A DNA stretch of 45,977 bases from a virus. Numbering within the stretch: the stretch's first letter is position 1; each line of letters opens with the position of its first letter. A program made the position numbers and the translations under genes. Location: IMG/VR virus record IMGVR_UViG_3300045988_043313, positions 1 to 45,977 of that record; one strand, 5' to 3'. The notes beneath the pieces were generated by a model. It searched no databases. It was not told where the DNA came from and saw nothing but the letters and a program-made list of their open reading frames with translations. Below are positions 1 through 45,922 of this stretch, piece by piece.

Positions 1-77
1 TATAGTTATAGAAAGTCATAGAGTAAGTTATAGAAAGTCATAGAGTAAGTTATAGAAAGTCATAGAGTAAGTTATAG
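1..77. repeat. 22-bp tandem direct repeat array (GTTATAGAAAGTCATAGAGTAA x3 plus a 7-nt partial unit)
   Basis: Identical units at 5-26, 27-48 and 49-70, with a partial unit at 71-77. A TYATAGA core recurs about every 11 bp (6, 16, 28, 38, 50, 60, 72). The array sits between terminator 45881-45913 (across the circular junction) and the RBS of CDS 90. Confidence 0.95.
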
Positions 78-89
78 GAGGTGTGCAAG

Positions 90-560
90 ATGGCATTATA
101 TAACAATCCTTATCAATATAGTTTTGGCGTTCCAGGACAGATGAATCAGTTCCAGCAACAGCCTGTCCAGATTCCAGCTCAACCAGTACAGCAACCACAG
201 CAGAATAATAATGGTATTTTGTGGGTATCCGGCGAAGTTGGTGCAAAATCCTATCTGGTAGCACCCGGGACAAGTGTTTTACTAATGGATTCAGAATCAG
301 AGAAATTTTATATAAAATCCACAGACGTATCCGGCATGCCGCAGCCACTGCGAACGTTTGAATACAACGAGGTAGGCTCTCAGATGCCGCCTAAACAGAC
401 TGTTCAGAACATGGACAGTAAATACGTCACCAGACAGGAATACGACGATTTAAAGGGCAAATACGAAGCTATCATAAACCGATTAAATTCTTTTTCTGAA
501 CCTGTTAGGGCTAATACCGTGCAGGAATCAGCAAACAAGGGAGGAAATGCAGATGAGTAA
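90..560 (+). CDS. Hypothetical protein with a Gln/Pro-rich N-terminus, a beta-rich core and a C-terminal coiled-coil-like segment
   Basis: AGGAGG at 76-81 lies 8 nt before ATG 90. The ORF-track start at 81 is GTG and too close to the RBS. No recognisable catalytic motif. Confidence 0.7.
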   Translation: MALYNNPYQYSFGVPGQMNQFQQQPVQIPAQPVQQPQQNNNGILWVSGEVGAKSYLVAPGTSVLLMDSESEKFYIKSTDVSGMPQPLRTFEYNEVGSQMPPKQTVQNMDSKYVTRQEYDDLKGKYEAIINRLNSFSEPVRANTVQESANKGGNADE

Positions 561-774
561 TCCATTATTTAACACACTTGGCGGTGGGATGCCACAGGGA
601 AACGGACCAATGCAGATGATACAGCAGTTTATGCAGTTTAAGCAGAATTTTAAAGGAGATCCGAAAGCAGAAGTTGAGAAAATGCTACAGTCTGGAAGGA
701 TTTCACAGCAACAGCTTAATCAGGTTCAGCAGATGGCAGGGCAGTTCCAGCACATGCTGAAAGGAATGAAATAG
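553..774 (+). CDS. Small Gln/Met-rich hypothetical protein (73 aa)
   Basis: GGAGG at 540-544 lies 8 nt before ATG 553. The ORF overlaps the end of the upstream gene, suggesting coupling. Confidence 0.6.
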   Translation: MSNPLFNTLGGGMPQGNGPMQMIQQFMQFKQNFKGDPKAEVEKMLQSGRISQQQLNQVQQMAGQFQHMLKGMK

Positions 775-827
775 TACATTACAATCTGGCCAGATTGATG
801 TAAATATACAATAAAGGAGATTATATT

Positions 828-1607
828 ATGGATGGAAATTATAGCTTAGCAGATATTGCCGCTGCTACTGGAAACGGTAGAAATAATGACGGCATGTTTG
901 GTGGAGATGGTAGCTGGTGGATTATTGTTTTATTCATTTTTGCTTTCTTCGGATGGGGAAACAACGGCTGGGGCAATAATGGAAACGGCGGTGGATATGC
1001 AGCCACAGCAGCTACTCAGGCAGACATCCAGAGAGGATTTGACAATTCCGCTGTGATTAGCAAACTTGACGGAATCAATAACGGTCTCTGTGACGGATTC
1101 TATTCAATGAACAATGGTATGCTTACCGGATTCAACGGAATCAACACAAACATCATGCAGACTGGTTTCGGCATTCAGCAGGCTATTAACGCTGACACTG
1201 TAGCAAATATGCAGAATACCAATGCACTCCAGGCACAGCTTGCGAACTGTTGCTGCGAAACCAGAGAAGCAATTCAGGGCGTAAACTACAATATGGCGCA
1301 GAACACCTGTGCATTACAGAACACCATGAACAGCAACACAAGAGATATCATTGACAGCCAGAACGCTGGGACAAGAGCCATTCTCGACTATCTTTGCAAT
1401 GAAAAGATTTCTAACCTGCAGGCTGAAAATAACGACCTCAGACGTGCTGCTTCTCAGGACCGCCAGAGCGCACTTCTCACAACTGCAATGGCTTCACAGA
1501 CACAGCAGCTCATTAATGCGATTAATCCGGCACCGATTCCGGCATATCAGGTTCCTAATCCGAACACATTTTACGGATGCGGATGCAACACTGGATGTAA
1601 TTGCTGA
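828..1607 (+). CDS. Hypothetical membrane-anchored protein with a Gly/Asn-rich region, Asn/Gln-rich body, CCC motif and Cys-rich tail
   Basis: AAAGGAG RBS. Hydrophobic segment WWIIVLFIFAFFGW flanked by GWGNNGWGNNGNGGG. Internal ANCCCETRE. C-terminus YGCGCNTGCNC. Confidence 0.75.
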   Translation: MDGNYSLADIAAATGNGRNNDGMFGGDGSWWIIVLFIFAFFGWGNNGWGNNGNGGGYAATAATQADIQRGFDNSAVISKLDGINNGLCDGFYSMNNGMLTGFNGINTNIMQTGFGIQQAINADTVANMQNTNALQAQLANCCCETREAIQGVNYNMAQNTCALQNTMNSNTRDIIDSQNAGTRAILDYLCNEKISNLQAENNDLRRAASQDRQSALLTTAMASQTQQLINAINPAPIPAYQVPNPNTFYGCGCNTGCNC

Positions 1608-1670
1608 TAACTTCATATCGAGAGTATCTTTCGATTGATTCGGATGTCGGCTTATGCCGTATTACACAGA

Positions 1671-1694
1671 GGGCAGGCTGAGACCTGTCCTTTT
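1671..1694 (+). terminator. Rho-independent terminator/attenuator inside the accessory operon
   Basis: 7-bp stem GGGCAGG/CCTGTCC (one G.U pair), 6-nt loop, then TTTT. Confidence 0.6.
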
Positions 1695-1716
1695 GTGATA
1701 TGAAAGGAGTATTTTT

Positions 1717-2139
1717 ATGGCAGAATTTACAAATGTAGCTGCTCAGACTGTAGCAGCAAATGGAAACGTAGTATTTTCAAACACAGCAGTCAAAGGTTCT
1801 AACTGCATTCAACACAGGGAGGGAAGTGGAATCATTACGCTGAGAGGACTTACTAACCAGTGCAAGGCTAGATTTTTCGTGGACTTCTCTGGTAATATTG
1901 CAATTCCAACAGGTGGTACTGTCGGGGCTATCTCTCTGGCTATTGCAATATCTGGTGAGCCGGTTCTTTCTTCTCAGATGATTTCCACGCCGGCAGCAGT
2001 AGACCAGTACAACAATGTGTCCTCTGGCATCTATATTGATGTACCTCGTGGATGTTGCGTTAATATTGCAGTAGAGAACACAAGCGATCAGGCGATTTCT
2101 GTTGCGAACGCAAATATTGTTGTGACCAGAGAAGCGTAG
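1717..2139 (+). CDS. BclA-C-terminal-like (C1q/TNF-like jelly-roll) protein, putative
   Basis: 140 aa, AAAGGAG RBS. The beta-rich sequence pattern (NVAAQTVAANGNVVF...ITLRG...VDFSGNIAIP...IVVTR) resembles small exosporium BclA C-terminal-domain-like proteins of Firmicutes. Assignment is by eye only. Confidence 0.45.
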   Translation: MAEFTNVAAQTVAANGNVVFSNTAVKGSNCIQHREGSGIITLRGLTNQCKARFFVDFSGNIAIPTGGTVGAISLAIAISGEPVLSSQMISTPAAVDQYNNVSSGIYIDVPRGCCVNIAVENTSDQAISVANANIVVTREA

Positions 2140-2150
2140 GAGGTGTGATT

Positions 2151-2705
2151 ATGAGAGACATTAAGGATTTATGTGCAAGAATTGAAGACGAACTGTCCAA
2201 AATTGCTGACAGTGGACTGACTACCGGAAATCTGGAAATGACATACAAACTGATTGATATGTACAAAGATATCAAGAATACGTATTACTGGGACAAGAAA
2301 GTGGAATATTACAACACTGTCCTTGATGAGATGCGTAGCGGCTACAATGACGATTACAGCGAACGTGGAAGAAAGCGTGACAGCATGGGGAGATACAGCG
2401 CAAATGACGGCAGAATGATGCCAGATTACGACCGGGGCAGTTCTTATGCCAGACGTGGTGAGCATTATGTTAGAGGGCATTACAGCCGTTCTGACGGACG
2501 AGATGCTTATGACGACTACATGACGCAGAAACAAAGCTATCGTTCCGGCAAGTCTGAGGACTGCAAAAGAAAGATGCTCGCCGCTCTAGAAGAACATCTG
2601 GACGAACTCACTACAGAAATGAGCGATATGTCCAAGGACGCAGAGTGCCGGGAGGAACGTGATCTTGTCAAAAGATACGTGGAAAAACTCCGTGATATGC
2701 TCTAA
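2151..2705 (+). CDS. Hypothetical protein with helical ends and an Arg/Asp/Tyr/Ser-rich low-complexity centre
   Basis: AGGAGG at 2138-2143 lies 7 nt before ATG 2151. No recognisable domain. Confidence 0.65.
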   Translation: MRDIKDLCARIEDELSKIADSGLTTGNLEMTYKLIDMYKDIKNTYYWDKKVEYYNTVLDEMRSGYNDDYSERGRKRDSMGRYSANDGRMMPDYDRGSSYARRGEHYVRGHYSRSDGRDAYDDYMTQKQSYRSGKSEDCKRKMLAALEEHLDELTTEMSDMSKDAECREERDLVKRYVEKLRDML

Positions 2706-3072: not shown

Positions 3073-3144
3073 GGCAGGATGGAGAAGTGGAATCTCACAA
3101 GGTTCATACCCTTGAGAACGGCGGTTCGAATCCGTCTCCTGCAA
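3073..3144 (+). tRNA. tRNA with CAU anticodon (Met/fMet or Ile2 type), no encoded CCA
   Basis: Full hand-folded cloverleaf. Acceptor 3073-3079/3137-3143 with a G1.A72 mismatch. U8. D stem GAGA/TCTC with a GG loop. Anticodon stem CAAGG/CCTTG, loop TTCATAC. 5-nt variable loop. T arm GGCGG-TTCGAAT-CCGTC. Confidence 0.75.
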
Positions 3145-3262: not shown

Positions 3263-3336
3263 TGGAATGTAGCTCAGTTGGGAGAGCGGAGGACGCATAG
3301 TCCTTGACGTCGGTGGTTCGAGTCCACCCTTTCCGA
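3263..3336 (+). tRNA. Non-canonical tRNA-like gene, CAU anticodon
   Basis: D arm GCTC-AGTTGGGA-GAGC and T arm GGTGG-TTCGAGT-CCACC are canonical. The acceptor has U1.G72 and a U.U mismatch, the anticodon loop is CGCATAG (G at position 33), and the variable loop is 6 nt. Confidence 0.45.
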
Positions 3337-3414
3337 TTACCCTGCCAGTGGTCTAACTGGCTTAATCCACTTACCTGCGGCGGCAGGTCAATAAACACGA
3401 CCAGGAGGATGTAT

Positions 3415-4047
3415 ATGCAGAAACTTATTGACACATTAAAATCATTTGGAATTGAAATCCCGGAGGACAAACAGGCAGATGTGAAAAAGGCGCTCTCAGA
3501 ACATTATAAGAACGCCAAAGAAGTAGCGAAAACCCTGTCAAAAGTCGAGGGAGAACGCGATGACTGGAAAGAACGTGCTGAAACAGCAGAGGAGACCTTA
3601 AAAGGTTTTGACGGTATCGACCCGGCGAACATTCAGACAGAGCTTGCTAGATGGAAGAAAAAAGCTGAGGATGCAGAGAAAGAATTCAATGCAAAAATTT
3701 ACGACCGTGATTTCTCAGATGCTCTGAAAGCGGCACTCGATGATGTTAAGTTTTCCAGCGAAGCTGCAAAGAAATCAGTTATGGCAGACATTAAAGAAGC
3801 AGGATTGAAGCTGAAAGACGGTAAAATCCTTGGACTGAACGACCTGATTGAGCAGATGAAACAGTCTGACGCATCTGCTTTCGTGGACGAATCTCAGCAG
3901 CAGGCTCAGCAGAACCAGGCAAGATTTACCACTCACGTTGGACAGCAGCAGACACCGGGAAACATGACTAAAAAAGATATCGAAGCAATCAAAGACCCGT
4001 CCGAGAGACAGGCCGCAATCGCTCAGAATATCCAGTTATTCCAGTGA
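3415..4047 (+). CDS. Scaffolding protein (GP20-like minor structural protein)
   Basis: AGGAGG at 3403-3408 lies 6 nt before ATG 3415. Highly charged, helical, coiled-coil sequence directly upstream of the capsid gene. Confidence 0.75.
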   Translation: MQKLIDTLKSFGIEIPEDKQADVKKALSEHYKNAKEVAKTLSKVEGERDDWKERAETAEETLKGFDGIDPANIQTELARWKKKAEDAEKEFNAKIYDRDFSDALKAALDDVKFSSEAAKKSVMADIKEAGLKLKDGKILGLNDLIEQMKQSDASAFVDESQQQAQQNQARFTTHVGQQQTPGNMTKKDIEAIKDPSERQAAIAQNIQLFQ

Positions 4048-4123: not shown

Positions 4124-5293
4124 ATGCCAGCAAAAACAAATCTTATTATGACTAATGATATTCATGTCACAGCACGTGAGATTGACTTTGTTACCAGATT
4201 CGAAAGAAACTGGCAGCACTTACGTGATATTCTGGGTATCATGAGACCTATCAAAAAGCAGCCGGGTGCTGTACTCAAGTCCAAATACGCAGAGGGTACT
4301 TTACAGAGCGGAAAAGTTGGTGAGGGTGAGGAAATCCCTTACAGCAAATTCGTTGTAAAAGAAAAGGACTATGCGGAAATGACTATCGAGAAGTACGCAA
4401 AGGCTGTGTCTATCGAAGCAATCAAGGATCACGGTTACGAGAACGCTGTTCAGATGACCGATGATGAATTCCTTTTCCAGCTTCAGACTGATGTTACCGG
4501 CAGATTCTATGACTATCTGAAAACCGGTACACTTACTTCCACAGAAACAACATTCCAGATGGCTCTGGCAATGGCTAAGGGTCGAGTAGAAAACAAATTC
4601 AAGCAGATGCACAGAAATGTGACTGGTGTTGTTGGATTTGTGAATATTCTGGACGTATATGAATATCTCGGAGCAGCTGAGATTACTATTCAGAACCAGT
4701 TCGGATTCCAGTATATGAAGGATTTTATGGGATTCAACACAATCTTTTTACTGTCTGACAGCGAAATCCCGAGAGGACAGGTTATTGCTACTCCTGTTGA
4801 GAACATTGTCCTGTACTATGTAGACCCGAACGAATCTGACTTCGCAAGAGCAGGACTTGTATACACCGTATCTGGTGAGACAAACCTGATCGGATTCCAC
4901 ACTCAGGGCAACTACCACACAGCAGTGTCCGAAGCGTTTGCGGTTATGGGACTGACTCTTTTTGCAGAATACATTGACGCAATCGCAGTAATTACCATTG
5001 ATGAAACACCAACACTTGGTACCCTGACAGTAACATCTGCAGCTGGAACAGCAACTGGTGATACGAAAATCACTGTAAATCCGGCTAAGGAAAATGCTAA
5101 CAACGTATATAAATACAAAGTTGCAACAGACGCAGTAACTGTTGGATATGGACAGAATCTCAGAAACTGGAGTACTTGGGACGGAAAATCTGATATCACA
5201 GCGGCAACCGGACAGAAGATCACAGTGGTTGAGTGTGACGGAACATACAAAGCGCTGAATGCCGGAAGTGCAAGCGTAACAGCAAAATCATAA
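4124..5293 (+). CDS. Major capsid protein with C-terminal Ig-like (Big_2-like) domain
   Basis: 389 aa, positioned after the scaffold gene. The C-terminal ~95 aa (TLTVTSAAGTATGDTKITV...) look like a bacterial Ig-like domain. Confidence 0.85.
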   Translation: MPAKTNLIMTNDIHVTAREIDFVTRFERNWQHLRDILGIMRPIKKQPGAVLKSKYAEGTLQSGKVGEGEEIPYSKFVVKEKDYAEMTIEKYAKAVSIEAIKDHGYENAVQMTDDEFLFQLQTDVTGRFYDYLKTGTLTSTETTFQMALAMAKGRVENKFKQMHRNVTGVVGFVNILDVYEYLGAAEITIQNQFGFQYMKDFMGFNTIFLLSDSEIPRGQVIATPVENIVLYYVDPNESDFARAGLVYTVSGETNLIGFHTQGNYHTAVSEAFAVMGLTLFAEYIDAIAVITIDETPTLGTLTVTSAAGTATGDTKITVNPAKENANNVYKYKVATDAVTVGYGQNLRNWSTWDGKSDITAATGQKITVVECDGTYKALNAGSASVTAKS

Positions 5294-5808: not shown

Positions 5809-6642
5809 ATGGCTAATTATGGCGTGCCGTATAAGGGCAGTAAAAATAAAATTGCAAAGCAAATTATTGATTTCTTACCTTCCGGCGGTACGTTATATGA
5901 TTTATTCGCAGGCGGTTGCGCAATCACACATTGCGCTATGGAATCTGGAAAATATGACAGGTATATCGTTAATGATATTGAACCAGGAATTACTCAACTT
6001 TTCATTGATGCAGTTAACGGGAAATATGCAAATGAAAAAAGATGGATTAGCCGAGAAGATTTTTTTAAATTAAAAGAATCAGATCCATATGTAAAATATT
6101 GTTGGAGTTTTGGAAACAATGGACGCGATTATCTTTATTCAAAAGCAATAGAACCATTAAAAAAACATCTTCACAATATATTTTTTGCAGAAAATTTGCA
6201 GGAAGCAAGGCTTGAATGGAAAGCGTTTATTAGAGATTTTTGCACAAGCAAACAAAGTCTGCAAAGTCTGCAAAGTTTGCAAAGTCTGCAAAGTTTGGAA
6301 AGGCTGCAAAGTTTGCAAAGTCTGCAAAGTTTGGAAAGGCTGGAAAGGCTTTGTACGGACTACGGAAATATAAGAATAGAGTCAGATGCTGTAATTTACT
6401 GTGATATTCCATATAAAAATACAAACAGATATGGAGATGAAAAAGCAGAATTTGACTATAACTCTTTTTATGACTGGGCTTGTTCACAGAACGTTCCTGT
6501 ATTTATATCGGAGTACGATATGCCAGAAGATAGATTTGAATGCGTACTTGAAATGAAAAAGCAATCTTGCATGGCTGCTACAAAAACGCTTTCAGTAACT
6601 GAGAAATTATATATTCCTAGGAAGAAAGGAAAGATAAAATGA
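5809..6642 (+). CDS. DNA N6-adenine methyltransferase (Dam-like, D12 class)
   Basis: N-terminal YKGSKNK, SAM motif DLFAGG, and catalytic DIPY (a DPPY variant) near residue 200. AT-rich compared with its neighbours. Confidence 0.8.
   Translation: MANYGVPYKGSKNKIAKQIIDFLPSGGTLYDLFAGGCAITHCAMESGKYDRYIVNDIEPGITQLFIDAVNGKYANEKRWISREDFFKLKESDPYVKYCWSFGNNGRDYLYSKAIEPLKKHLHNIFFAENLQEARLEWKAFIRDFCTSKQSLQSLQSLQSLQSLERLQSLQSLQSLERLERLCTDYGNIRIESDAVIYCDIPYKNTNRYGDEKAEFDYNSFYDWACSQNVPVFISEYDMPEDRFECVLEMKKQSCMAATKTLSVTEKLYIPRKKGKIK
6253..6351 (+). repeat. In-frame 9-bp tandem repeat tract (11 units) inside the methyltransferase gene
   Basis: Units are CAAAGTCTG/CAAAGTTTG (QSL) and GAAAGGCTG (ERL). They are in frame with the CDS and lie between the SAM motif and DIPY. 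Confidence 0.95.
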
Positions 6643-6662
6643 AAGCAGGAGGTACCTGAATA

Positions 6663-6932
6663 ATGGATATTTCAACATTAGGCTCATGCGTAGCAATCGT
6701 GATGATCTGTTACATCGTAGGAATGGGCTGTAAGGCATCAAAAAGAATCTCTGATGAATGGATTCCGGTAATCATGGCGATTATTGGTGGAATTCTCGGA
6801 GCAGTCGGAATGGGAATTATCCCGGATTTCCCGGCAACGGATTATATCACGGCGGTTGCAGTCGGTATGTTCAACGGATTGTCAGCAACTGGCGTGAATC
6901 AGGTTATTAAGCAGACAGTACAGAAAGAATAA
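6663..6932 (+). CDS. Holin-like small membrane protein
   Basis: 89 aa, 2-3 predicted TM helices, charged C-terminus. The sequence style (IPVIMAIIGGILGAVG...PDFPATDYITAVAVG...ATGVNQVIKQ) resembles phage holin family proteins of Firmicutes. Confidence 0.55.
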   Translation: MDISTLGSCVAIVMICYIVGMGCKASKRISDEWIPVIMAIIGGILGAVGMGIIPDFPATDYITAVAVGMFNGLSATGVNQVIKQTVQKE

Positions 6933-8395: not shown

Positions 8396-8479
8396 ATCGT
8401 CGGAGGTGGTAGATTTCGTTGCAACCACGCACCCTATGGGTTAAAAGAGATGCAGGAGCCGCAACGCCTGCCCGACGAT
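8396..8479 (+). promoter_or_regulatory. Structured intergenic element upstream of the major tail gene
   Basis: Closing helix ATCGTCGG (8396-8403) with CCGACGAT (8472-8479). Inner helix CGTTGC (8417-8422) with GCAACG (8461-8466). Hairpin ACCC-TAT-GGGT at 8431-8441. No T-run follows. Confidence 0.4.
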
Positions 8480-17637: not shown

Positions 17638-19059
17638 ATGGAAATTAAAGGAATTGACGTATCATCTTATCAAGGAAACCCAGATTGGGCGAAAGTATCG
17701 AATTCTGGAATTAAGTTTGCAATTTTGAGAATTCATCAGAAATCCGGCACAGATGCATCATTCGAACACAACTACAAGGGCTGTAAATCCAATGGAATTC
17801 TTATTGGTGGATATAAATACAGTTATGCTTTAACACCGGCACAGGCAATTGACGAAGCTGAGAACTTAATTTCCGTTCTTGGTGGACGCGGATTGGATTT
17901 CCCAGTATTCTATGACCTCGAATGGAAACAGCAGAGAAGTCTTGGAAAACAGGCTATTGAGAATATTGCAGTAGCATTTCTGACCAGAATCAAGAAAGCC
18001 GGTTATAAGGCAGGCATCTATTGCAATCTTGATTGGCACAATAACGTTTTGTCAGATGCGCTGAAACAGTATGATTGTTGGATTGCTCGTTATCCGGCTA
18101 ACGACAACGGCTCTGCACAGGAAAGATTACGTCCGAACGTCGGTGTAGGCTGGCAGTATTCCAGTAAAGGAAAAGTTCCAGGAATTAATGGAAATGTTGA
18201 TATGGATGTGTTTTACAAGGATTATAGAGATTCTGACCAGAAAGGAGAAACTAAAATGGTAAAAATCAGTAACTGCGGACATGATGAAAGAGGAAGATAT
18301 GCAGGTGGGAAAGCAGGAGATCAGACTGGTACAGAATATCAGATCATGAACTGGTACAGTAGACCGTGGCTCTGTGTCCTAAGATTCAATGACGCCAAAA
18401 TCGCAACCATGATTGCAGACATGGCGACAAAAGCGGCACAGAACAATCTCATCGGATACGATCAGGGCACTGCCGGAAACAGCAATGACCGGTATTCGTT
18501 CTGGCGGCACTTAAAGGCAAGCAACTACGATCCGGCGCAGATCACGGTAGCTTGCGAATCTGATTGCAGCGCAAGTACAGCAGCTATCGTCAAGGGAGCT
18601 GGGTATCGCTTAAATAACGCAAGACTCAAAGCGGTCAGCATCTATCTGACGACACGAAACATGAGAGCTGCAATGAAGATTGCCGGTGCGAAAGTACTGA
18701 CGGATAGAAAGTATCTGACATCCGGCGACTATCTAAAGGCAGGAGATATCCTCCTGAATGATAACCACCACGTGGCTATCGCTGTTACCACCGGCGCAAA
18801 AGCAAATACGCTTTCAGCGTCAACTATTCTGTCTAAAACTCCGAAGTGGGTGGGAAAGGTAACTGCAAATACACTTAATGTCCGCACATGGGCAGGAACA
18901 GAGTATGCACAGCTTAAAAGCTATCCTACACTTGCAAAAGGCAATTTAGTTGATGTATGCGATACCATTAAAGCCAAAGATGGAGCATCTTGGTACTATA
19001 TCCGCATTGCCGGAAAATATTTTGGATTTGTTTCTGCAAAATACATCAAAAAGGTATAA
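17638..19059 (+). CDS. Endolysin: GH25 muramidase + Cys/His amidase/peptidase-like domain + SH3 domain
   Basis: N-terminus GIDVSSYQGNPDW...FYDLEW (GH25). Middle domain has ESDCSASTAAIV and NHHVAIAV (candidate Cys-His pair). C-terminus KWVGKVTANTLNVRTWAG...YYIRIAGKYFGFVSAKYI is SH3-like. Confidence 0.85.
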   Translation: MEIKGIDVSSYQGNPDWAKVSNSGIKFAILRIHQKSGTDASFEHNYKGCKSNGILIGGYKYSYALTPAQAIDEAENLISVLGGRGLDFPVFYDLEWKQQRSLGKQAIENIAVAFLTRIKKAGYKAGIYCNLDWHNNVLSDALKQYDCWIARYPANDNGSAQERLRPNVGVGWQYSSKGKVPGINGNVDMDVFYKDYRDSDQKGETKMVKISNCGHDERGRYAGGKAGDQTGTEYQIMNWYSRPWLCVLRFNDAKIATMIADMATKAAQNNLIGYDQGTAGNSNDRYSFWRHLKASNYDPAQITVACESDCSASTAAIVKGAGYRLNNARLKAVSIYLTTRNMRAAMKIAGAKVLTDRKYLTSGDYLKAGDILLNDNHHVAIAVTTGAKANTLSASTILSKTPKWVGKVTANTLNVRTWAGTEYAQLKSYPTLAKGNLVDVCDTIKAKDGASWYYIRIAGKYFGFVSAKYIKKV

Positions 19060-19309: not shown

Positions 19310-20419
19310 CTATTTTTCAGCACTTTCTTTTTTTGTGTTGCATTCCGTGTTGCATAGCTTTGAAAAATAATCATTCCCAATTTCATTCATCTCTTTTTCT
19401 CGATCAACCAGAACGTGCCGATATACATTTTTTAATGTGGTATCATCCTCCCAACCGCCGCGCTGCATAATATATACATCTGGAATTCCAAGAGTATGCA
19501 ACTCAGATGCGCAATAATGACGCAAATCATGGAATCGAAAATGATGAATCTGATTGTCATCTAACAGATCTGAAAATCTGTCGGATATTTGCGATGGGTT
19601 CAAATTTGTTATTTTCCCATGTATTCCTTTTAATTTATCTGCAACAAAATCTGGATATGAAATGAATCTGTCACCAGCAAAAGATTTTGGTCTTTTGATA
19701 ACCCAACCATGAGAATCATTCATAACCATAGCATATTCGACATGTACTATGTTCTGCTTGATATGATCAGAATTAAGCGCACAGATTTCTGACCGCCTCA
19801 TCGGACCGAACGCTGCCAGAAGAACAGGTATCTCTAATTCACTACCTACAGTACATTCAATTACCTTTTTGACTTCGGCAGATGTAGGTACATAGATTTT
19901 CGGTCTTACCTTTTTAGGTAAGGAAGTTCTTAAGATGAAATCCGAACGATAAGTCTTCAAGACAGTAGAAAGAAAGCCATGCATATTGTACACAGTTTTT
20001 GGCGAATGAGTAAGTGCTTCACGATTCATTTCAGCTTGAACATCCTCTTGAGTGATTTCCATTATATTTAATGACATAAGTTTAGCCATGTCTCTTTTGA
20101 CAGATCGCTTATATTCTCTAATAGTTCCAGGGGATAAAACACCTGTTCTGCTTTCTATGTATTTATTACATGCCTCTTTTAATGTCATATCTTCTGGTGG
20201 AACATATCGCGCAGTCAATACTTCACTTTCTTTTTTTGCTGCCCATTCGGCAGCCATTTGCTCACAGATTCGCTTCCCTTTTTTGCTAGGATCTGAACAT
20301 GTAAAAGATTTATAAACCCTTTTCTTTTTGATAGTCCCGTCTGATAACGGGATTTCTTCGATGTGACTGAATACCTGACATCTCCATGAGCCAGATGGCA
20401 GTTTTTTTGCAGTTGCCAT
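19310..20419 (-). CDS. int: Tyrosine recombinase (phage integrase)
   Basis: The C-terminal catalytic region HDLRHYCASE...GGW...YRHV gives the R-H-R-Y signature. N-terminus is KLPSGSWRCQV type. Adjacent to the attP core. Confidence 0.92.
   Translation of the reverse strand: MATAKKLPSGSWRCQVFSHIEEIPLSDGTIKKKRVYKSFTCSDPSKKGKRICEQMAAEWAAKKESEVLTARYVPPEDMTLKEACNKYIESRTGVLSPGTIREYKRSVKRDMAKLMSLNIMEITQEDVQAEMNREALTHSPKTVYNMHGFLSTVLKTYRSDFILRTSLPKKVRPKIYVPTSAEVKKVIECTVGSELEIPVLLAAFGPMRRSEICALNSDHIKQNIVHVEYAMVMNDSHGWVIKRPKSFAGDRFISYPDFVADKLKGIHGKITNLNPSQISDRFSDLLDDNQIHHFRFHDLRHYCASELHTLGIPDVYIMQRGGWEDDTTLKNVYRHVLVDREKEMNEIGNDYFSKLCNTECNTKKESAEK
19334..19357. repeat. Doubled (T/C)GTGTTGCAT motif, candidate arm-type site (P' arm), inside the integrase 3' end
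   Basis: TGTGTTGCATTCCGTGTTGCATAG encodes CNTECNT at the integrase C-terminus. It is a direct repeat of 19118-19141. Confidence 0.5.
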
Positions 20420-20554: not shown

Positions 20555-20594
20555 AAAAACCGGTTCCCGTTGGTAGCAGGAGCCGGTTCTTTTT
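20555..20594 (-). terminator. Terminator downstream of the response-regulator/SHOCT operon
   Basis: 10-bp stem AACCGGTTCC/GGAGCCGGTT (one G.U pair), 11-nt loop, flanked by A/T runs. Confidence 0.7.
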
Positions 20595-21471
20595 ATAAAA
20601 GTTCTGATTTTTTCTGGTCAAATTCTTCTTGAGTAATAATACCGCTATCTAAAAGCTCTTTGTAATCCTTCAGTAGTTCAACGGATGTTTTCTGATTTCG
20701 AACATTTTCAACAGCATCAGAGCTTTTGGAAATATTGAAACTCTTTAACTGCATATCTATATTTGAACTACAGCGGAATCCAATAGTATTTATTTGATTG
20801 GTTTCGATATTCCGCATTTTCATAGATGCATAAGAATCCACTTCAATGTTATCACTTGTTGTGGTAGCAGTTCCAGTAGTAGTGGAATTATTCTTTCCTT
20901 TGGTTTTCTTTCCAGTTCCAACAGCTGCACCGACTATAGTTCCAACTCCCGGAGCAATAGCGGTTCCAACAACGGCTCCTGCTAAATGCCCTCTTCGTTT
21001 CGTTTTTTCTTTACTTTTCCCTTTAGTGTGAGATGTTGTAGTTGTCTTTTCTACTGTTCTGTATTCCGGCCCGTTCCATTCATAGTCGAAAAGTTCATAT
21101 TTGGTTGGAGCATCTGACACTGTAACAGACCCATCTTTCCATTGCTTCAAATCAAATCTTGCGTGTTTGGAACCAAGCTCAAAATCCTCCTTACCGGATA
21201 TAACTCTCAGATTCAATACTCGAACAGGTTTTTCTACAACCGCTGGCTGGGTTGCTACGGAATTATTTGATATTGCAGGTTTTTGAACCTTATTTTTAAT
21301 AGACAGCAAAAGTGCAAAAATAAGATACAAAACAGCAATTCCAAATGTCTCAAGTACAACAACGACCATAATATTGTCCGATGAAAGATCGTTTGAACTC
21401 ATCAAAGCCACAATCATCAGCACAATGAATGCAGTCCAAATAATCATCAACACATTTCGTATCTTTTTCAT
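20593..21471 (-). CDS. Membrane protein with glycine-zipper segment and C-terminal SHOCT domain
   Basis: The likely start is the 7th codon of the ORF (AAGGGGG RBS upstream). Two N-terminal TM helices. GAVVGTAIAPGVGTIVGAAVGTG glycine zipper. The C-terminus ELLKDYKELLDSGIITQEEFDQKKSELL matches the SHOCT motif. Confidence 0.75.
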   Translation of the reverse strand: MKKIRNVLMIIWTAFIVLMIVALMSSNDLSSDNIMVVVVLETFGIAVLYLIFALLLSIKNKVQKPAISNNSVATQPAVVEKPVRVLNLRVISGKEDFELGSKHARFDLKQWKDGSVTVSDAPTKYELFDYEWNGPEYRTVEKTTTTSHTKGKSKEKTKRRGHLAGAVVGTAIAPGVGTIVGAAVGTGKKTKGKNNSTTTGTATTTSDNIEVDSYASMKMRNIETNQINTIGFRCSSNIDMQLKSFNISKSSDAVENVRNQKTSVELLKDYKELLDSGIITQEEFDQKKSELL

Positions 21472-21491
21472 AGTTTCCCCCTTTGACACGA

Positions 21492-22196
21492 TTACTCAAA
21501 ATTTTCGATATAATTCTTATATAGATTCCTTATTTTTGCAGCCTCCCTCTGCCTGATCGGAACGATATCCCCTGATATCATTTCGAAATGATCTGACGCA
21601 TCTTTGATTTCATCCATGTTTACGATGTAGCTCTGATGACAACGGAGAAATCTTCCGTCAAGGCGAGGCTCTATATCTGACAGCTTTCCACGTACTACAT
21701 GTATGATACCGCAGGTACAGTGGACAAGAATTGATTTATTTCGGCTTTCTATGTATTCGATGTGACGGAATTCTACCCGATGGAAGTGATCTCGGTTTTT
21801 GATAGTCAAGGCTTTCTCACGGATATCTTCCAATGTGTGTGCTACGACAGAATACATGCGTCCATGCTCAGAGCCTTTGATGATGTAATGCACTGGCAAG
21901 ACGTCCAATGCGTCAAATACATAGTTTTTGTATGCTGTCCAGAAGGCAATGTTGCCATTATATCCATTTTTCCTGAGCTGTCTTGCAACATTTATGCCAT
22001 TCTCATTATCAAGGACCACATCCAACACGACTATATCGTACCATTGACCGTCTGCTATATCATCAATCAGCGGCTTTCCACTACTATAAGTGTTTAGCGT
22101 GTAACTCTTGTCTCCGCGCTTTTTCAAAAACTCATCAATATGAGCCTTAAAAAAATCAATCTGTAAAGAATTATCGTCACAAATCGCAATTTTCAT
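21492..22196 (-). CDS. LytTR-family response regulator (receiver + LytTR DNA-binding domain), orphan
   Basis: The receiver has the acidic pair CDDN, a phospho-acceptor candidate in IVVLDVVLD, and downstream T and K residues. The C-terminal half (FRHIEYIESRNKSILVHC...FLRCHQSYIVNMDEI) is LytTR-like. No histidine kinase gene is present in the genome. Confidence 0.85.
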   Translation of the reverse strand: MKIAICDDNSLQIDFFKAHIDEFLKKRGDKSYTLNTYSSGKPLIDDIADGQWYDIVVLDVVLDNENGINVARQLRKNGYNGNIAFWTAYKNYVFDALDVLPVHYIIKGSEHGRMYSVVAHTLEDIREKALTIKNRDHFHRVEFRHIEYIESRNKSILVHCTCGIIHVVRGKLSDIEPRLDGRFLRCHQSYIVNMDEIKDASDHFEMISGDIVPIRQREAAKIRNLYKNYIENFE

Positions 22197-39912: not shown

Positions 39913-41358
39913 ATGGGACTTATAACAACACTAAAAAGGTGGTTTAACATGATATTCAAAAAACAAGCCGAAGAGGACTTTAATATCCAGGCGGCAGAGT
40001 TCCCAGAGATGGAATCGTTGATTAATAAATGTGCAAACATATATCGAGGCGTTCCATACTGGTTAGATGATAAAAATAACATCAAGACGATTAATTTTGC
40101 TAAATCCGTCTGCTCCGAGACTGCCAGACTTGCAACATTGGCGATCGGTATTCAGATTGACGGCTCTGCAAGGGCGGCATGGTTACAGGAGCAGATCGAT
40201 AAAGTATATTTCCAGATACGTCACTGGGTAGAATACGGCTGTGCTTATGGAACGGTATTTATCAAACCAAACGGTGAGAGCCTTGACGTATTCACTCCGG
40301 CAGATGTGATGATTGTGGATTACGATAATCAGGAAATCAAAGGGATTATATTTAAGGACTCTTATACTGTTGGTAGAAAATACTACACAAGGCTCGAATA
40401 TCACAGGTTTGTTGAGACAACAGTGGACGGAGTGACAACCTATCCGTATTATGTTTCTAACAGAGCCTATGTATCAAAATCTCCTCAAAGCATCGGAGAC
40501 AAGATTGACCTTAAACAGACAAAGTGGGCTGACCTAATGGCAGATACGCCGCCGATACTCAAGGCAAACGGCGAGAAACTGGACGGACCTTTGTACGGAG
40601 TACTGCGGACACCACAGGCGAATAACGTGGATATCAGTACACCGCTTGGATTGCCGATATTTGCAGAAGCAATTGAGGAATTAAAGGATTTAGACATTGC
40701 ATACAGCCGAAACGCAAAAGAAATCCTTGATTCTAAGCGGACTGTTCTGGCAGATGACAGATTGTTGATGCCGAGTGGTTCACCTGTCTCCGCTATGACA
40801 CCACAGGCAATGGAACATAGATGCTTAGAAATGAGTTTACCAGATTATGTGAAAAACGTATTCGGACAGGACGAGAAAGAGTTCTATCAAGAAATCAACC
40901 CGATTCTAAACACAGATACCCGTATAAGTGGCATAAACGCCATTTTAAGCCAGTTAGGGTACAAGATTGGATTCTCCAACGGATACTTCGTTTTTAACGA
41001 ATCCAGCGGCATTCAGACAGCTACAGGAGTAGAAGCGGAACAGCAGAGGACAGTGCAGTTCATCAAGGATGTAAGGGATAAGTTAGAGTCTTGCCTAGAT
41101 GAAGTTATTTACGCATTGAACGTTTACGCTGATCTGTACGGGCTTGCACCGGTTGGGGCTTATGAAGTCAATTATGATTTCGGAGACATCCTATATGTGC
41201 GTGAAAACGACCGTGCAAGATGGTGGCAGTATGTGACCACTGGCAAAGTTCCGGCATGGTTGTATTTCGTGAAATTTGAAGGAATGACCGAGGAAGAAGC
41301 GAAAGCAATGGTCAAAGAAGCTCAACCAGACGAACCAACATTATTCGGAGAGGAGTAA
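39913..41358 (+). CDS. Portal protein (SPP1 gp6-like)
   Basis: 481 aa, follows terL, and the sequence style is typical of the SPP1 portal family. Confidence 0.88.
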   Translation: MGLITTLKRWFNMIFKKQAEEDFNIQAAEFPEMESLINKCANIYRGVPYWLDDKNNIKTINFAKSVCSETARLATLAIGIQIDGSARAAWLQEQIDKVYFQIRHWVEYGCAYGTVFIKPNGESLDVFTPADVMIVDYDNQEIKGIIFKDSYTVGRKYYTRLEYHRFVETTVDGVTTYPYYVSNRAYVSKSPQSIGDKIDLKQTKWADLMADTPPILKANGEKLDGPLYGVLRTPQANNVDISTPLGLPIFAEAIEELKDLDIAYSRNAKEILDSKRTVLADDRLLMPSGSPVSAMTPQAMEHRCLEMSLPDYVKNVFGQDEKEFYQEINPILNTDTRISGINAILSQLGYKIGFSNGYFVFNESSGIQTATGVEAEQQRTVQFIKDVRDKLESCLDEVIYALNVYADLYGLAPVGAYEVNYDFGDILYVRENDRARWWQYVTTGKVPAWLYFVKFEGMTEEEAKAMVKEAQPDEPTLFGEE

Positions 41359-41362
41359 GAAG

Positions 41363-43654
41363 ATGGCTGATACATTCAAGGGAATAATCACAGCAGATGG
41401 AAAGAAGAGACAGTTGCCTTATAGAAATGTTATCGAAACGCCCGTGTCTGATGAAACATTGTCCATACAGGGAGCATTTGCCGACTCCAAAGCCGTAGGC
41501 GACAAATTCAAAGAAGTAAAGACAGAAACTGATTCACTAAAGGAAGATTTAGTTAAATATAATTGTTCTGAATTGTTATATTCAGACGCAGTATATAAAA
41601 GTGGAACGTCTCAAGGAATAACTTACACATGGAATGCTGATAAAACAATATGTGAAGTAAAAGGAACAGCAACAGGATATGCAGCATCTAATAATATTTT
41701 TTACAATGTTAGTGATTTGCCTAAAAATCTAAATGCTGGTGAAAAATATTATACCAAGTTTAAATCAAATGATTTAAAAATTGCATTACAAGTTGGATTT
41801 TTCAAAGATGGAGCAACAAGTAATGCTGAAACAGCTTTATACATTAACAACTTCATACTTGATATTCCCAGTAATTGTACAGGTATGTATATCAGATTAT
41901 ATATTCAGAATGGATATACAGTGGATGGAACTTGTACCAATATTGGTGTTTTTAATACTGTATCTAACAAAGAACTAAAAGAAAAAATGGATATATTAGA
42001 AGAAGATGCAGTATCCCTTGCAAATTCAGTTGAAAATCCAGAGTTATTTCTAATTGATGCAACTTTCACAGATGGAATTTCTAATGGTATAACATACAAA
42101 TGGAATGAGTCAAAAAGAGAATGTGCTGTTAGTGGTATAGCAAATAACTTGTCACTTAGAAACATTTATTATAGTGAAACTTCGCTTCCAAGAAATATTA
42201 AAGCTGGTTACAAATATTCTTTGAAATATAAAACAACAAATAAAAATATAAGACTGGTTATAGGTTGTTTTTTAAATGGTGCAACAAGTGGTGCTGATCG
42301 TACAATCATTACAGATGATACAATTATTAGTATTCCTGGTAATTGCACAGGTATGTATATCAGATATGAAGTTTCTAACGGTCTTGAAGCAAACGGTAGT
42401 ATCACAAACGTTAGAATTTTTAAAAACAACAACTCGCATTCTCTAAGTGGACCCACTACTATTGTGAAAACAACAAGCACTGATACCAATATAGCAGGTA
42501 GATCGTTTTCATTAATTCCTAAAAAATACAATAGAAAACCAATTCTCACAATTATTGACGATGATGGAAGAAATTCATTTTATACAGTTTATAAGTCTTT
42601 AATTCAAAAGGGGTATCCTATCGTATGTTGTATAGACCCTGTAAACTGGACAGGGAAGACTGACCGATTTATGTCATGGGAACAAGTTCATGAACTTGAA
42701 GAAATTGGGTGTGAATTTATAGTTCATGGCGCTTATCCATTTATGATTGGTGATAATCAACATTATAAAACAGCAGACGAATTAAGATTGTATTTTGAAG
42801 AAGCACAAGCTGAATTTAAAAAGCAGAAACTTTCTGACTGGGATTTAGCTGTTTATCCACAGAGTGACCATACTCATGAAACAAGACTTATTCTTTCTGA
42901 ATACTTTAGAGGTGCTTTTGCTAGTAAAGAACATGACGATATTTATTACAGCACACCACCTATTTCACAGTACAGAATTGCGAGATGGTTCTTTAACTAT
43001 GATGATTTATCAAGTGGGTTTGAAACAGCTAAGTTACAGATAGATGGTGCTATCGCAAATAATGGTTGGTTTGTTATTTGCACTCATTCAGAAATGTTTG
43101 ATACAGATGGAAAAGCAATTCAAACACTTGAGTCTATCATAAACTATGCAGAACAAAATGGTATGAGCATTGTTAATGCTAGAGATGGTATAGATATGTT
43201 CTCAAATCTTTTACAAATTGGTGATTTTAGTAACACAGGAAGTAATTATGGCTATCCTTGCAGAGTTATTGGATGCGATGGTACTGAATTTATTAGTCCA
43301 CAGTTTGAAAACAATCATATTAGTATTTCAGATGGGGAAAACACCATACAAAAGATAGCTAATATCTCTAATATTGGAAACGGATTTTGTATTGTAACGA
43401 TAGATGCAGGTATTAGCGAATTGAAAGCTGTATCAACTTTACTAAAAATTACAGGATTGAATAGTAAACCTATTATTCAGAGTTTTCCAGCAGTTATAAG
43501 AATTAATGCAAACAAGTACAAAAATGTTGTTGCTGTTAGAAGTGGAAATGATATTTTATTCAAAGAATCAAATGGGGATAATATGTTGATTTCATCTTCT
43601 GATATGACTACATATACAAGCATTGAATTAAGCTACATAGCACAAATGCTTTAG
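41363..43654 (+). CDS. Fibre-like protein: N-terminal anchor/coiled coil, two tandem beta-sandwich repeats, polysaccharide-deacetylase-like domain
   Basis: Repeats at roughly residues 66-198 and 226-354 share GITY.WN...C.V.G...NCTGMYIR...G...TN. ILTIIDDDGRNSF is a NodB-like DD motif, with ICTHSEMF later in the sequence. Markedly AT-rich. Confidence 0.6.
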   Translation: MADTFKGIITADGKKRQLPYRNVIETPVSDETLSIQGAFADSKAVGDKFKEVKTETDSLKEDLVKYNCSELLYSDAVYKSGTSQGITYTWNADKTICEVKGTATGYAASNNIFYNVSDLPKNLNAGEKYYTKFKSNDLKIALQVGFFKDGATSNAETALYINNFILDIPSNCTGMYIRLYIQNGYTVDGTCTNIGVFNTVSNKELKEKMDILEEDAVSLANSVENPELFLIDATFTDGISNGITYKWNESKRECAVSGIANNLSLRNIYYSETSLPRNIKAGYKYSLKYKTTNKNIRLVIGCFLNGATSGADRTIITDDTIISIPGNCTGMYIRYEVSNGLEANGSITNVRIFKNNNSHSLSGPTTIVKTTSTDTNIAGRSFSLIPKKYNRKPILTIIDDDGRNSFYTVYKSLIQKGYPIVCCIDPVNWTGKTDRFMSWEQVHELEEIGCEFIVHGAYPFMIGDNQHYKTADELRLYFEEAQAEFKKQKLSDWDLAVYPQSDHTHETRLILSEYFRGAFASKEHDDIYYSTPPISQYRIARWFFNYDDLSSGFETAKLQIDGAIANNGWFVICTHSEMFDTDGKAIQTLESIINYAEQNGMSIVNARDGIDMFSNLLQIGDFSNTGSNYGYPCRVIGCDGTEFISPQFENNHISISDGENTIQKIANISNIGNGFCIVTIDAGISELKAVSTLLKITGLNSKPIIQSFPAVIRINANKYKNVVAVRSGNDILFKESNGDNMLISSSDMTTYTSIELSYIAQML

Positions 43655-43669
43655 TTAACCAGCAAAAAA

Positions 43670-43714
43670 CTAAAACATGTACCACGACTTTTGACGAAAG
43701 AGGTGATATAGTAT
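43670..43714 (+). promoter_or_regulatory. Conserved box + extended -10, copy 3 (overlaps the RBS/ATG of the MuF-like gene)
   Basis: CTAAAACATGTACCACGACTTTT, then 11 nt, then TGATATAGTAT. The final AT are the first two bases of ATG 43713. Confidence 0.5.
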
Positions 43715-44942: not shown

Positions 44943-45328
44943 TGGATGATAGATGGGAATATTATAATCCGAATCCCGTTAAGGATAAGAGAACAGGAGA
45001 CTGCGTTGTCCGGGCAATATGCAAGGCAACCGGTTTTGACTGGGAAACGGTATTTGCCGGATTAATGATACAGGCGTGCGCTCTATCAGATATGCCAAGC
45101 GCAAATTATGTCTGGGGAGCGTACCTCTATAAACGTGGGTACAGACGCAAACTGATTGAGCAATCAGAACGGTATATCTATACAGTCAACGACTTTTGTG
45201 CAGACCATCCGACAGGTACGTATATCCTCTGCATAGATGGTCATGTGGTGACGGTACAGAACGGCAAATATTACGATACATGGGATAGTGGCAATGAGAT
45301 CCCGGTATACTACTGGGAAAAGGAGTAG
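44942..45328 (+). CDS. Putative papain-fold cysteine peptidase
   Basis: Candidate triad Cys21 (TGDCVVRAI), His101 (IDGHVVTV), Asp112/115 (YYDTWDS). ATGA-type coupling to the MuF-like gene. Confidence 0.4.
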   Translation: MDDRWEYYNPNPVKDKRTGDCVVRAICKATGFDWETVFAGLMIQACALSDMPSANYVWGAYLYKRGYRRKLIEQSERYIYTVNDFCADHPTGTYILCIDGHVVTVQNGKYYDTWDSGNEIPVYYWEKE

Positions 45329-45332
45329 CTAA

Positions 45333-45638
45333 ATGAGCATATCAGAATTTGTACAAGTATTCCTCTCAATTTGCGGAGGAGTGTCTATTGTCGGAGGAGC
45401 GGTGGCCGTAATTCTTAAGTGGATTACTCCGGCATTTCGACTCAACAAGCGAGTTGAGACACTGGAAGAACATGATAAGCGAGATTACGAGAGTCTTCAG
45501 AGGATTGCGGAACGTGATTCATTGATTCTGGAAGTATTGTCAACAATGTTGGACAGTCAGATTAGTGGAAATAACGTCGAGGAATTAAAAAAAACAAAAC
45601 AGAAGCTTACAAATTATCTTGCACAGAATCAACGTTAG
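45333..45638 (+). CDS. Single-pass membrane protein with coiled-coil C-terminus
   Basis: AAGGAG RBS. N-terminal TM segment VFLSICGGVSIVGGAVAVIL. Confidence 0.6.
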   Translation: MSISEFVQVFLSICGGVSIVGGAVAVILKWITPAFRLNKRVETLEEHDKRDYESLQRIAERDSLILEVLSTMLDSQISGNNVEELKKTKQKLTNYLAQNQR

Positions 45639-45913: not shown

Positions 45914-45922
45914 ATGCAAAAA

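Follow-up and report, generated by a model that had tools for sequence, protein, structure and literature searches.

The described systems that come closest to the gene module examined here include phage morons, the exosporium proteins of the Bacillus cereus group, and viral fibres of the reovirus sigma-1 or adenovirus type. The module lies in a 45,977-nucleotide stretch of viral DNA (IMG/VR record IMGVR_UViG_3300045988_043313, positions 1 to 45,977; this whole stretch is called the window below), where the genes g1 to g5 occupy positions 90 to 2705 and two further genes that travel with them, u1 and u3, lie just upstream. Like morons, the module is present in some phages and absent from related ones, sits at insertion hotspots (after the lysis genes, or in the gap between the MuF and scaffold genes), has a terminator-like hairpin at its boundary and shows no relation to the essential genes beside it. 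Unlike typical morons, it is large (six to eight genes), has conserved functional slots, keeps the orientation of the late genes and carries a phage-type regulator; it is also found in crAss-like phages, and one of its genes, g3, occurs alone in archaeal viruses.

The exosporium proteins resemble a single product of the module. The C-terminal domains of BclA and F-BclA, as well as ExsFA/BxpB, have the fold of g4 in common (probability 1.0, E 8e-7 to 4e-5, template modelling (TM) score 0.67-0.79), and g4 is, like ExsFA/BxpB, small, stand-alone, devoid of a signal peptide and encoded next to a Cys-rich partner. It differs from them in that no sequence homology is detectable, there is neither a collagen-like stalk nor an exosporium-targeting N-terminus, and most hosts of the viruses that encode it do not sporulate. 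The paper on F-ENA describes the structures nearest to g4 without a related operon (PMC12357932).

The third likeness is one of layout: the long amphipathic helical g3 with an adjoining gene for a TNF-like knob recalls the stalk and knob of sigma-1 and adenovirus fibre. In contrast to these fibres, stalk and knob would here be separate polypeptides, the g3 stalk has a hydrophobic segment of the membrane-anchor type, and we found no association with any one capsid or tail. Apart from the fold of g4, we found no defining feature of a head decoration protein, prohead protease, holin or spanin, known defence system or BclA nap, and searches of the literature on RAGATH-21, on the 'spike' annotation in crAss-like phages and on BclA-like phage proteins found nothing on the module. 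Provisionally, the module can thus be regarded as a new kind of system, in the sense that it shows no known system's defining feature and not that a new mechanism has been shown. In this study, we show by sequence comparison that g1 to g5, together with u1 and u3, form one accessory module, complete in itself and exchanged horizontally among gut viruses.

Results

Five genes under purifying selection

All five open reading frames (ORFs) are present on the forward strand at the coordinates claimed in a first-pass annotation of the window, and the compositions of g1, g2, g3 and g5 agree with its description. In the product of g1 (90-560, 156 aa; Q 12%, P 8%), a disordered N-terminus rich in Gln, Pro and Tyr is followed by a conserved domain of about 50 aa with much beta structure (WVxGExGAK...DS...FYxKSxDxxGxP) and by a short helix. 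The start of g2 (547 or 553 to 774, 75 or 73 aa) overlaps the end of g1, and its small helical product is rich in Gln and Met (Q 21%, M 12%). Next come g3 (828-1607, 259 aa; N 15%, G 11%, 10 Cys, a hydrophobic segment at residues 28-44 and C-terminal GCGCNTGCNC) and g4 (1717-2139, 140 aa), a stand-alone TNF/C1q-like jelly roll with a conserved GCC motif. In g5 (2145 or 2151 to 2705, 186 or 184 aa; D 13%, R 11%, Y 9%), helical N- and C-terminal parts are joined by a low-complexity linker rich in Arg, Asp, Tyr, Ser and Gly; a 216-aa variant at other loci belongs to the same family.

Each gene matches one PHROG family, namely phrog_21718 (g1, E 3e-39), phrog_22984 (g2, E 1e-26), phrog_16490 (g3, E 1e-57), phrog_20016 (g4) and phrog_28802 (g5, E 2e-62), with E values from 1e-26 to 1e-62 and 'unknown function' as the annotation of all five. 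The ratio of nonsynonymous to synonymous polymorphism (pN/pS) was calculated against close IMG/VR relatives (63-80 for g1 to g5, 34-72 for u1 and for u2, a third upstream gene); these near-identical relatives, from the first IMG/VR scan, were used for selection and repeat analysis only. At a synonymous divergence of 0.27-0.46, pN/pS was 0.098 for g1, 0.076 for g2, 0.043 for g3, 0.015 for g4 and 0.028 for g5, compared with 0.094 for the capsid gene, which makes g4 the most constrained gene of the module. The corresponding values upstream were 0.070 (u1), 0.060 (u2) and 0.046 (u3). Because of the PHROG matches and the low pN/pS, g1 to g5 are genes and not chance ORFs.

Family searches gave little further information. 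Pfam, NCBIfam and PADLOC scans of all seven proteins returned nothing usable, Pfam scans of 14 diverse g3 homologues and ten neighbouring proteins gave no match, and none of the PDB sequence searches, single or profile, with g1, g3, g4, g5 and u1 was significant. Inspection by eye revealed no signal-peptide-like N-terminus on g1, g2, g4, g5 or u1. One apparent match was discarded: that of g1 to the 2103-aa protein P0468 (E 1e-22) is a single 11-bit match repeated over identical Ig-like repeats.

A portable module independent of head assembly

In the window the five-gene set lies, as first described, between the MuF-like minor capsid gene (Phage_min_cap2/MuF-like, 43713-44942) and the genes for scaffold (about 3415-4047) and major capsid protein (4124-5293), and the gap between MuF and scaffold, measured across the window junction, is 4.45 kb. 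We ran tblastn and local profile searches over 16 diverse phage records and 17 loci in GTDB genomes (individual loci are denoted by L numbers). The module shares its position between MuF and scaffold, with an identical set and order of genes, with Dulem virus 35, L103 and L104. It follows the holin or endolysin gene in Butyrivibrio virus Ceridwen, Dulem viruses 33 and 40, Bajarodcaudo virus 5, L108, L109 and L111, and the lysis genes also in a Vescimonas fastidiosa prophage, where host genes begin right behind it. Dulem virus 36 carries it after tail or receptor-binding genes, and Dulem virus 39, C. perfringens phages and Bacteroides phage C3_41T2LP carry it after replication or recombination genes.

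Phages with a homologous capsid also differ in whether they carry the module. It is missing from Flavonifractor phage Chenonceau and Dorea phage DO134P1, whose capsids are 59% and 54% identical, respectively, and in which other small genes fill the MuF-scaffold gap; in MT835551, Dulem virus 33 and Ceridwen, the capsid gene is likewise homologous, and the cassette lies more than 10 kb away from the head genes. No Pfam or PHROG homology connects g1 to g5 with known head families (decoration, prohead protease, scaffold, internal proteins), and the same resources do recognise the flanking MuF, scaffold and capsid genes. Since phages with related capsids either lack the module or carry it elsewhere, the comparison indicates that it is an accessory insertion in a hotspot and not a part of head morphogenesis, in line with the first-pass annotation, which had taken it for an accessory unit inserted in the head block. 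Genome scans did not find the module outside viruses and prophages.

Co-occurrence and replaceable slots

Three more IMG/VR scans with divergent g3 seeds yielded 271 loci with a full-length g3, which fell into 72 g3 lineages at no more than 75% identity; 59 of these have at least 2.6 kb of flanking sequence on both sides. These 59 lineages cover phages of Firmicutes, Negativicutes and Bacteroidota, crAss-like phages, and archaeal viruses that have g3 only. The absence of the five genes together from other genomes had been named at the outset as an outcome that would speak against a common system. Co-occurrence was in fact present both in the 34 loci, 28 of which contain g1, and in the 59 lineages. 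A g1-type partner (g1 or its analogue in Bacteroidota phages) lies upstream of g3 in 51 lineages and a beta protein directly follows g3 in 52, being g4 in 33, a Cys-rich protein, g4b, in 14 and a member of another family in five. Between g1 and g3, the position called the small-gene slot, 37 lineages have a small helical gene, either g2 or g2b. The Arg/Asp/Tyr-rich slot is filled in 43 (the g5 family in 28 and the C7 family in 15, the placement of C7 in this slot resting on one example sequence), and a small peptidase is encoded in 34 (u1 in 14, the HExxH protein y107 in 14 and another HExxH family in six).

The alternatives are mutually exclusive for g4 and g4b, for g2 and g2b, for the g5 family and C7, and for the peptidases. 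Unrelated families that exclude each other at the same positions are what one would expect of a single functional system whose parts can be replaced. A homology of g2 with g2b and of g4 with g4b was considered and rejected, as hhalign gave no link, and the pairs are treated as analogues. The metallopeptidase y107 has weak and consistent matches to the M78/IrrE, SprT-like and DUF6782 families. In Bacteroidota phages (crAss-like cr116_1, Dulem virus 40, C3_41T2LP) the genes around g3 no longer align with g1, g4 or g5 and yet encode equivalent types of protein, namely a beta-rich protein, one with a beta domain plus a coiled coil, and a short Arg/Asp/Tyr/Glu-rich one, and an HExxH peptidase stands beside g3 in cr116_1 and C3_41T2LP. 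Given its occurrence and its 2590 clusters at 50% identity matched at E no higher than 1e-3, g1 is the predicted core partner of g3.

The signature protein g3

With more than 7900 relatives in the database, g3 is the gene by which the module can be recognised. From the N-terminus, its product has an acidic tail and then the hydrophobic segment, on either side of which Gly, Trp and Asn are found. About 175 aa of amphipathic helical sequence come next (hydrophobic periodicity 3.6 residues, z = 3.3) and include an invariant CCC; a PxPxPAY motif, rich in Pro, and a Cys cluster complete the protein. Residues W31, G47, G49, C141-C143, P236 and P238 are invariant. The hydrophobic anchor and its acidic N-flank are kept across the family, and hydrophobicity suggests that g3 is membrane-anchored. 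No holin family in Pfam matched g3, its best match in the PDB sequence search had an E value of 0.35, and in PADLOC-DB it matched only the tail of ZorA (E 0.0047, 13.8 bits), where the other six proteins had no match.

The viruses in which g3 stands alone are two that are assigned to Methanomassiliicoccales. In one of them (virus vir215, NC_092586.1; L115) the homologue, at 5878-6759, has two CCC motifs and no C-terminal Cys cluster, and lies after a reverse transcriptase of the diversity-generating retroelement type and before an integrase; the other module genes are absent.

The jelly-roll protein g4

The AlphaFold model of g4 (mean predicted local distance difference test score, pLDDT, 90.4) is a ten-strand jelly roll spanning residues 2 to 138. 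The top Foldseek match is the F-BclA C-terminal domain 9h38 (E 8e-7, TM 0.72-0.79), and matches at probability 1.0 in the PDB are 9h38, BclA 1wck, BxpB 8d02, ExsFA 7r1m, EDA-A1 1rj7 and C1q. There are 85 PDB matches at E no higher than 1e-3. Phage tail-fibre domains rank after F-BclA, BclA, BxpB, ExsFA and EDA-A1. The model thus places g4 in the TNF/C1q-like jelly-roll superfamily at the level of the fold, and the initial description of g4 as similar to the C-terminus of BclA is true at this level only: no sequence match to the BclA, C1q, TNF or ExsF families was obtained in Pfam, NCBIfam or PDB, and no GXX collagen-like repeats were seen. A match to the CdiA toxin 5e3e (E 0.015) disappeared in the profile search and is regarded as chance.

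The upstream genes u1, u2 and u3

Three genes separate the MuF-like gene from g1, and two of them, u1 and u3, travel with the cassette, so that the description of a five-gene unit was too narrow. The first, u1 (44942-45328, forward strand, 128 aa), which the first-pass annotation did not list, fills the peptidase slot. In phage and GTDB loci it is usually immediately upstream of g1 and at times downstream of g3; it is directly 5' of g1 in L004, L005, L092-L094, L101, L108 and L113. Across 14 diverse and 57 database homologues, N9, N11, D20, C21, R24, A25, H101 and D112 are invariant. The AlphaFold model (pLDDT 93.9) has a fold that is common among uncharacterised phage proteins; its best interpretable match in the PDB, a weak one, is Josephin-2 6pgv (probability 0.72, TM 0.53, E 0.23), with Tae4 and an NlpC/P60 endopeptidase as lower-scoring matches, and in BFVD a Josephin-domain protein of Orpheovirus (E 0.36). 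With clan CA peptidases u1 shares Cys, His and Asp in canonical order (C21, H101 and D112) and upstream Asn of the oxyanion-hole type (N9 and N11), whereas its structural scores against Josephin, NlpC/P60 and Tae4 are weak, no curated peptidase family matched in Pfam or NCBIfam, and the profile search found no PDB match. We consider u1 probably a papain-like (clan CA) cysteine peptidase. The earlier statement that there is no enzymatic motif therefore stands for the five genes and fails for the module, which has a peptidase slot. The glycine motifs of g2 (NPLFNxLGGG) and g3 (FGGDG) were considered as double-glycine cleavage sites of u1 and set aside, because many modules lack u1.

The second gene, u2 (45333-45638, forward strand, 101 aa), encodes an N-terminal hydrophobic segment and a helical coiled-coil-like tail, and has neither a Pfam nor a PHROG match. 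Homologues were found in L103 and L104 only, two loci with a closely related arrangement, so that u2 is a doubtful member of the module and may be a separate passenger gene. The third, u3 (45659-45859, forward strand, 66 aa), likewise missed in the first-pass annotation, is a helix-turn-helix regulator resembling sigma-70 region 4 (Sigma70_r4, E 0.0057, a weak match below the Pfam cut-off) just upstream of the cassette. A small gene homologous to u3 precedes g1 in 7 of the 34 loci, and regulators of this sigma-r4-like kind lie upstream of the module in 16 of the 59 dereplicated lineages.

Control elements

Between u3 and g1 the sequence contains a terminator-like hairpin (45883-45913, forward strand; CCAGAAAC-GACCT-GTTTCCGG, then TTCTTTTTTT), which is kept in relatives that carry u3. 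It is followed, within 45914-45977 on the same strand, by the motif ATGCAAAAATATA, a candidate promoter -10 region that is present in 58 of 58 distinct upstream variants, even where the upstream gene is a different one in the opposite orientation. Scans for a sigma-70 consensus promoter and for a terminator after g5 found neither (the hairpin at 45883-45913 lay outside the terminator scan).

A 22-bp tandem repeat (unit AGTTATAGAAAGTCATAGAGTA; 45926-45977 and 4-77, forward strand; Tandem Repeats Finder) is located between the ATGCAAAAATATA element and the g1 ribosome-binding site (AGGAGG, 76-81), and runs into the latter. The first-pass annotation had proposed that the genes have their own repeat-array control region. 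Among close relatives, the array has from 0 to about seven eleven-base units, and most of the 58 upstream variants have none, so that it is a variable-number tandem repeat and no conserved control element. Both window ends lie inside the repeat with its phase broken at the junction, and the copy number here is accordingly uncertain and possibly an assembly artefact. The repeat appears to have arisen when the segment separating the TATAAT-like box from the ribosome-binding site was duplicated, and it could tune expression.

The internal hairpin reported at 1671-1694 does exist. The spacer between g3 and g4 (1608-1716, forward strand) contains a hairpin at 1671-1690 followed by TTTT at 1691-1694, just before the g4 ribosome-binding site, with an extended stem at about 1660-1702; its minimum free energy is -39 kcal/mol (z = -5.0). 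Among 44 distinct relatives the spacer is almost invariant despite a synonymous divergence of about 0.3 in the flanking genes, and the changes that do occur in the hairpin are compensatory (arms swapped in L012, G.T to G-C in L065 and L057). Because these changes keep the hairpin and TTTT follows it, it is probably a partial terminator or attenuator that lowers g4 and g5 relative to g1-g3. Two more small hairpins at 1608-1668 (TCGAGAG...CTTTCGA and CGGC...GCCG) are conserved to the same extent as the main one.

Discussion

What the module does can be approached from its composition and its distribution. The reading we favour, tentatively and with the final function a guess, is that it builds a membrane-anchored assembly that acts on the infected cell. 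The module would form its own transcription unit behind the terminator, starting at ATGCAAAAATATA and probably activated here by u3, with g4 and g5 probably made in smaller amounts than g1-g3 owing to the hairpin and T-run after g3. The hydrophobic segment of g3 would insert into the cytoplasmic membrane of the host with the acidic N-tail probably outside, and the long helical Cys-rich part would remain in the cytoplasm, because no partner carries a signal peptide. There, g3 could serve as a stalk or platform for g4, presumably a trimer, and for g1, g2 and g5, and the adjacent cysteines (CCC and the C-terminal CxC in g3, GCC in g4) could join the assembly through metal ions or disulfide bonds. 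The small peptidase, which is u1 here and an HExxH metallopeptidase in other versions, may mature a component or cut a host target. The complex would act at the membrane of the infected cell, since this is the sole structure common to one- and two-membrane bacterial hosts and archaeal hosts; blocking the entry of competing viruses and preparing egress are possible roles. A cell-acting role is preferred because the module works across different envelopes and moves between unrelated virion types.

Several observations weigh against this reading. Membrane insertion and topology of g3 are predicted from hydrophobicity, the hydrophobic core spans no more than 12-14 residues and lacks positive charges on its flanks, and other annotators have labelled g3 homologues 'viral fiber' or 'spike'. 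TNF/C1q-like domains of phages are usually the heads of virion fibres or receptor-binding proteins, as in the matches to cyanophages A-1(L) and A4. In many genomes the module is located in or near the structural genes and is oriented like late genes. The papain-like assignment of u1 depends on weak structural matches (E 0.23), the scan for a promoter fitting the sigma-70 consensus was negative, and no homologue of known function supports a cellular role.

In the main rival reading, the proteins would be borne by the virion, either with g3 as a trimeric fibre and g4 as its knob on the head or neck, binding mucus or glycans, or as packed proteins that are ejected, in which case g3 would enter the host membrane and the peptidase would attack host defences. 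We regard this as somewhat unlikely. The structural neighbours of g4 include phage fibre and receptor-binding domains and BclA-type fibre tips, depositors have called g3 homologues 'outer capsid protein/viral fiber' or 'spike', the module is often in or at the end of the structural or late block (here right after the MuF-like gene), and the occurrence of g3 in viruses of very different hosts of one habitat, archaea included, fits a role facing the environment. A neighbour gene in C3_41T2LP is annotated as a metallopeptidase of the PolyVal type, a family proposed to be injected together with DNA. However, the module moves among unrelated capsids and tails (siphoviruses, crAss-like podoviruses and archaeal viruses) with no apparent capsid-binding or packaging signal, phages of the same capsid family assemble without it, and its neighbours in C. 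perfringens phages and C3_41T2LP are early or recombination genes. The conserved hydrophobic anchor is also hard to fit on a protein shell, and Pfam, PHROGs and PDB sequence searches gave no homology to known decoration, fibre or ejection proteins. A cassette for lysogenic conversion, in which the prophage expresses a membrane-anchored defence or superinfection exclusion system, would account for the moron positions (Dulem virus 33 and the Vescimonas prophage have it between the endolysin and the integrase or attachment site, and in Ceridwen it follows the lysis genes), for the terminator-like hairpin before it and the conserved upstream element of its own, and for presence or absence among otherwise related phages. 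Several defence systems likewise combine a membrane anchor with a peptidase, and the weak PADLOC match of g3 to the ZorA tail is in keeping with this. Such a cassette is nevertheless quite unlikely: no PADLOC family matches convincingly and no nuclease, NTPase or other usual defence effector is encoded; the module is common in crAss-like phages, which are not known to be temperate; and it always has the orientation of late genes, here in the head block beside a phage-type sigma-r4-like activator.

Its frequent position also raises the question of an accessory role in lysis, with g3 as a large single-pass holin, an antiholin or a spanin-like protein and the other genes tuning lysis timing. The module comes directly after the holin or endolysin in at least eight independent contexts (L004, L005, L087, L089, L108, L109, L111 and L114) and is at most 1.2 kb from the lysis genes in the crAss-like cr116_1, and the layout of g3, with a short N-tail, one hydrophobic segment and a large Cys-bearing C-terminal domain, recalls T4-type holins and i-spanins. 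Yet carriers already encode recognisable holins, the Hol44 holin and GH25 endolysin genes of the window are far from the module, Dulem virus 40 has, as read from sequence, its own unimolecular spanin-like gene, spanins would be pointless for hosts with a single membrane, and accessory genes of any kind usually insert at the end of the late operon; a lysis role is thus improbable. (The Dulem virus 40 gene, at 4209-4775 of L089 in the interval between amidase and holin, encodes a lipobox-like LLCGC, a coiled coil and a C-terminal hydrophobic segment. Its product looks like a unimolecular spanin, which would imply a two-membrane host.) By analogy with Bacillus BclA, ExsFA and the Cys-rich ExsY, the proteins might instead form a layer like an exosporium or spore coat and, with the help of a cross-linking enzyme, remodel the host's cell or spore surface. 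BclA, F-BclA, BxpB and ExsFA are the closest structures to g4; Cys-rich g3, Gln-rich g1 and g2 and Tyr-rich g5 resemble coat proteins in composition; and the papain-like fold is also that of transglutaminases such as the spore-coat enzyme Tgl. Against this, Butyrivibrio, Lachnospira, Selenomonas, Anaerovibrio and Bacteroides are non-sporulating hosts, g3 occurs in viruses of methanogens, g4 has neither collagen-like repeats nor a BclA or ExsF sequence match, and no module protein has a secretion signal. Modification of the spore surface, one of the possibilities listed in the first-pass annotation, is therefore very improbable.

A more novel reading is also conceivable, namely a hitherto unrecognised, virus-built assembly of the stalk-and-knob or coat-like kind, anchored in the membrane and linked by cysteines, in infected non-sporulating gut microbes. 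It would consist of a helical Cys-rich anchor, a TNF-like trimer, low-complexity proteins and a peptidase for maturation. We consider this reading unlikely; if it did hold, the role of the assembly would be tied to the gut habitat or to the universal membrane and not to one host envelope.

The numbers of relatives of g3 and g1 given above show that the module is very common. It ranks with the best-conserved regions of these highly abundant phages of the human gut and is spread across host phyla, g3 even across domains, and six to eight genes in slots with unrelated substitutes are the pattern of a real molecular machine. Solving it would give a role to several large 'hypothetical' protein families of the gut virome, and could reveal a new viral action on the cell membrane or the gut environment. 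Cultured carriers exist in Butyrivibrio virus Ceridwen, Bacteroides phage C3_41T2LP, several C. perfringens phages, among them HMD-PC1 and PMQ04, and a prophage of Lachnospira intestinalis CLA-AA-H89B.

Other features of the window

The window is a circularly permuted genome of a temperate siphophage of about 46 kb with the identical 22-bp tandem repeat at both ends, and it also encodes a terminase. Because the g3 of the Lachnospira intestinalis prophage is 79% identical, the host of this lineage is probably Lachnospira or another member of the Lachnospiraceae. A Hol44-family holin gene (6663-6932) stands among the head-tail genes, about 10.7 kb from the gene for the GH25 endolysin (17638-19059). 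The latter directly adjoins the integrase gene (19310-20419, reverse strand), so there is no space in the window for accessory genes at the usual post-lysis site.

Besides g1 to g5, the MuF-scaffold gap contains u1, u2, u3, a RAGATH-21 RNA (2828-2904; 86.9 bits, gathering score 70.3) and two tRNA-Met (CAT) genes (3073-3144 and 3263-3336), and the RNA and the tRNA genes occupy the non-coding stretch from g5 to the scaffold gene. The longest scaffold ORF, with a TTG start at 3304, would overlap the second tRNA-Met gene, and for this reason the true start is probably an ATG near 3409-3415.

Upstream of the MuF-like gene, a 481-aa ORF (39913-41358) that has no Pfam match is taken as the portal by position only. 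Between it and the MuF-like gene lies a 763-aa ORF (41363-43654), likewise with no Pfam match; at the equivalent position, Dulem virus 35 has a hypothetical gene of 497 aa.

Within the head-tail block there is a gene for a D12-class N6-adenine DNA methyltransferase (5809-6642), which holds an in-frame 9-bp tandem repeat (6253-6347, about 10.6 copies) encoding SLQ/SLE repeats, and the methyltransferase could thus be variable in length. A skipping-rope RNA motif (8396-8479; 59.9 bits, gathering score 36.7) lies between two head-tail genes. Next to the integrase, and also on the reverse strand, are genes for a SHOCT-domain protein (20593-21489) and a LytTR-type response regulator (21492-22196), a regulator pair that is unusual for the lysogeny region of a prophage.

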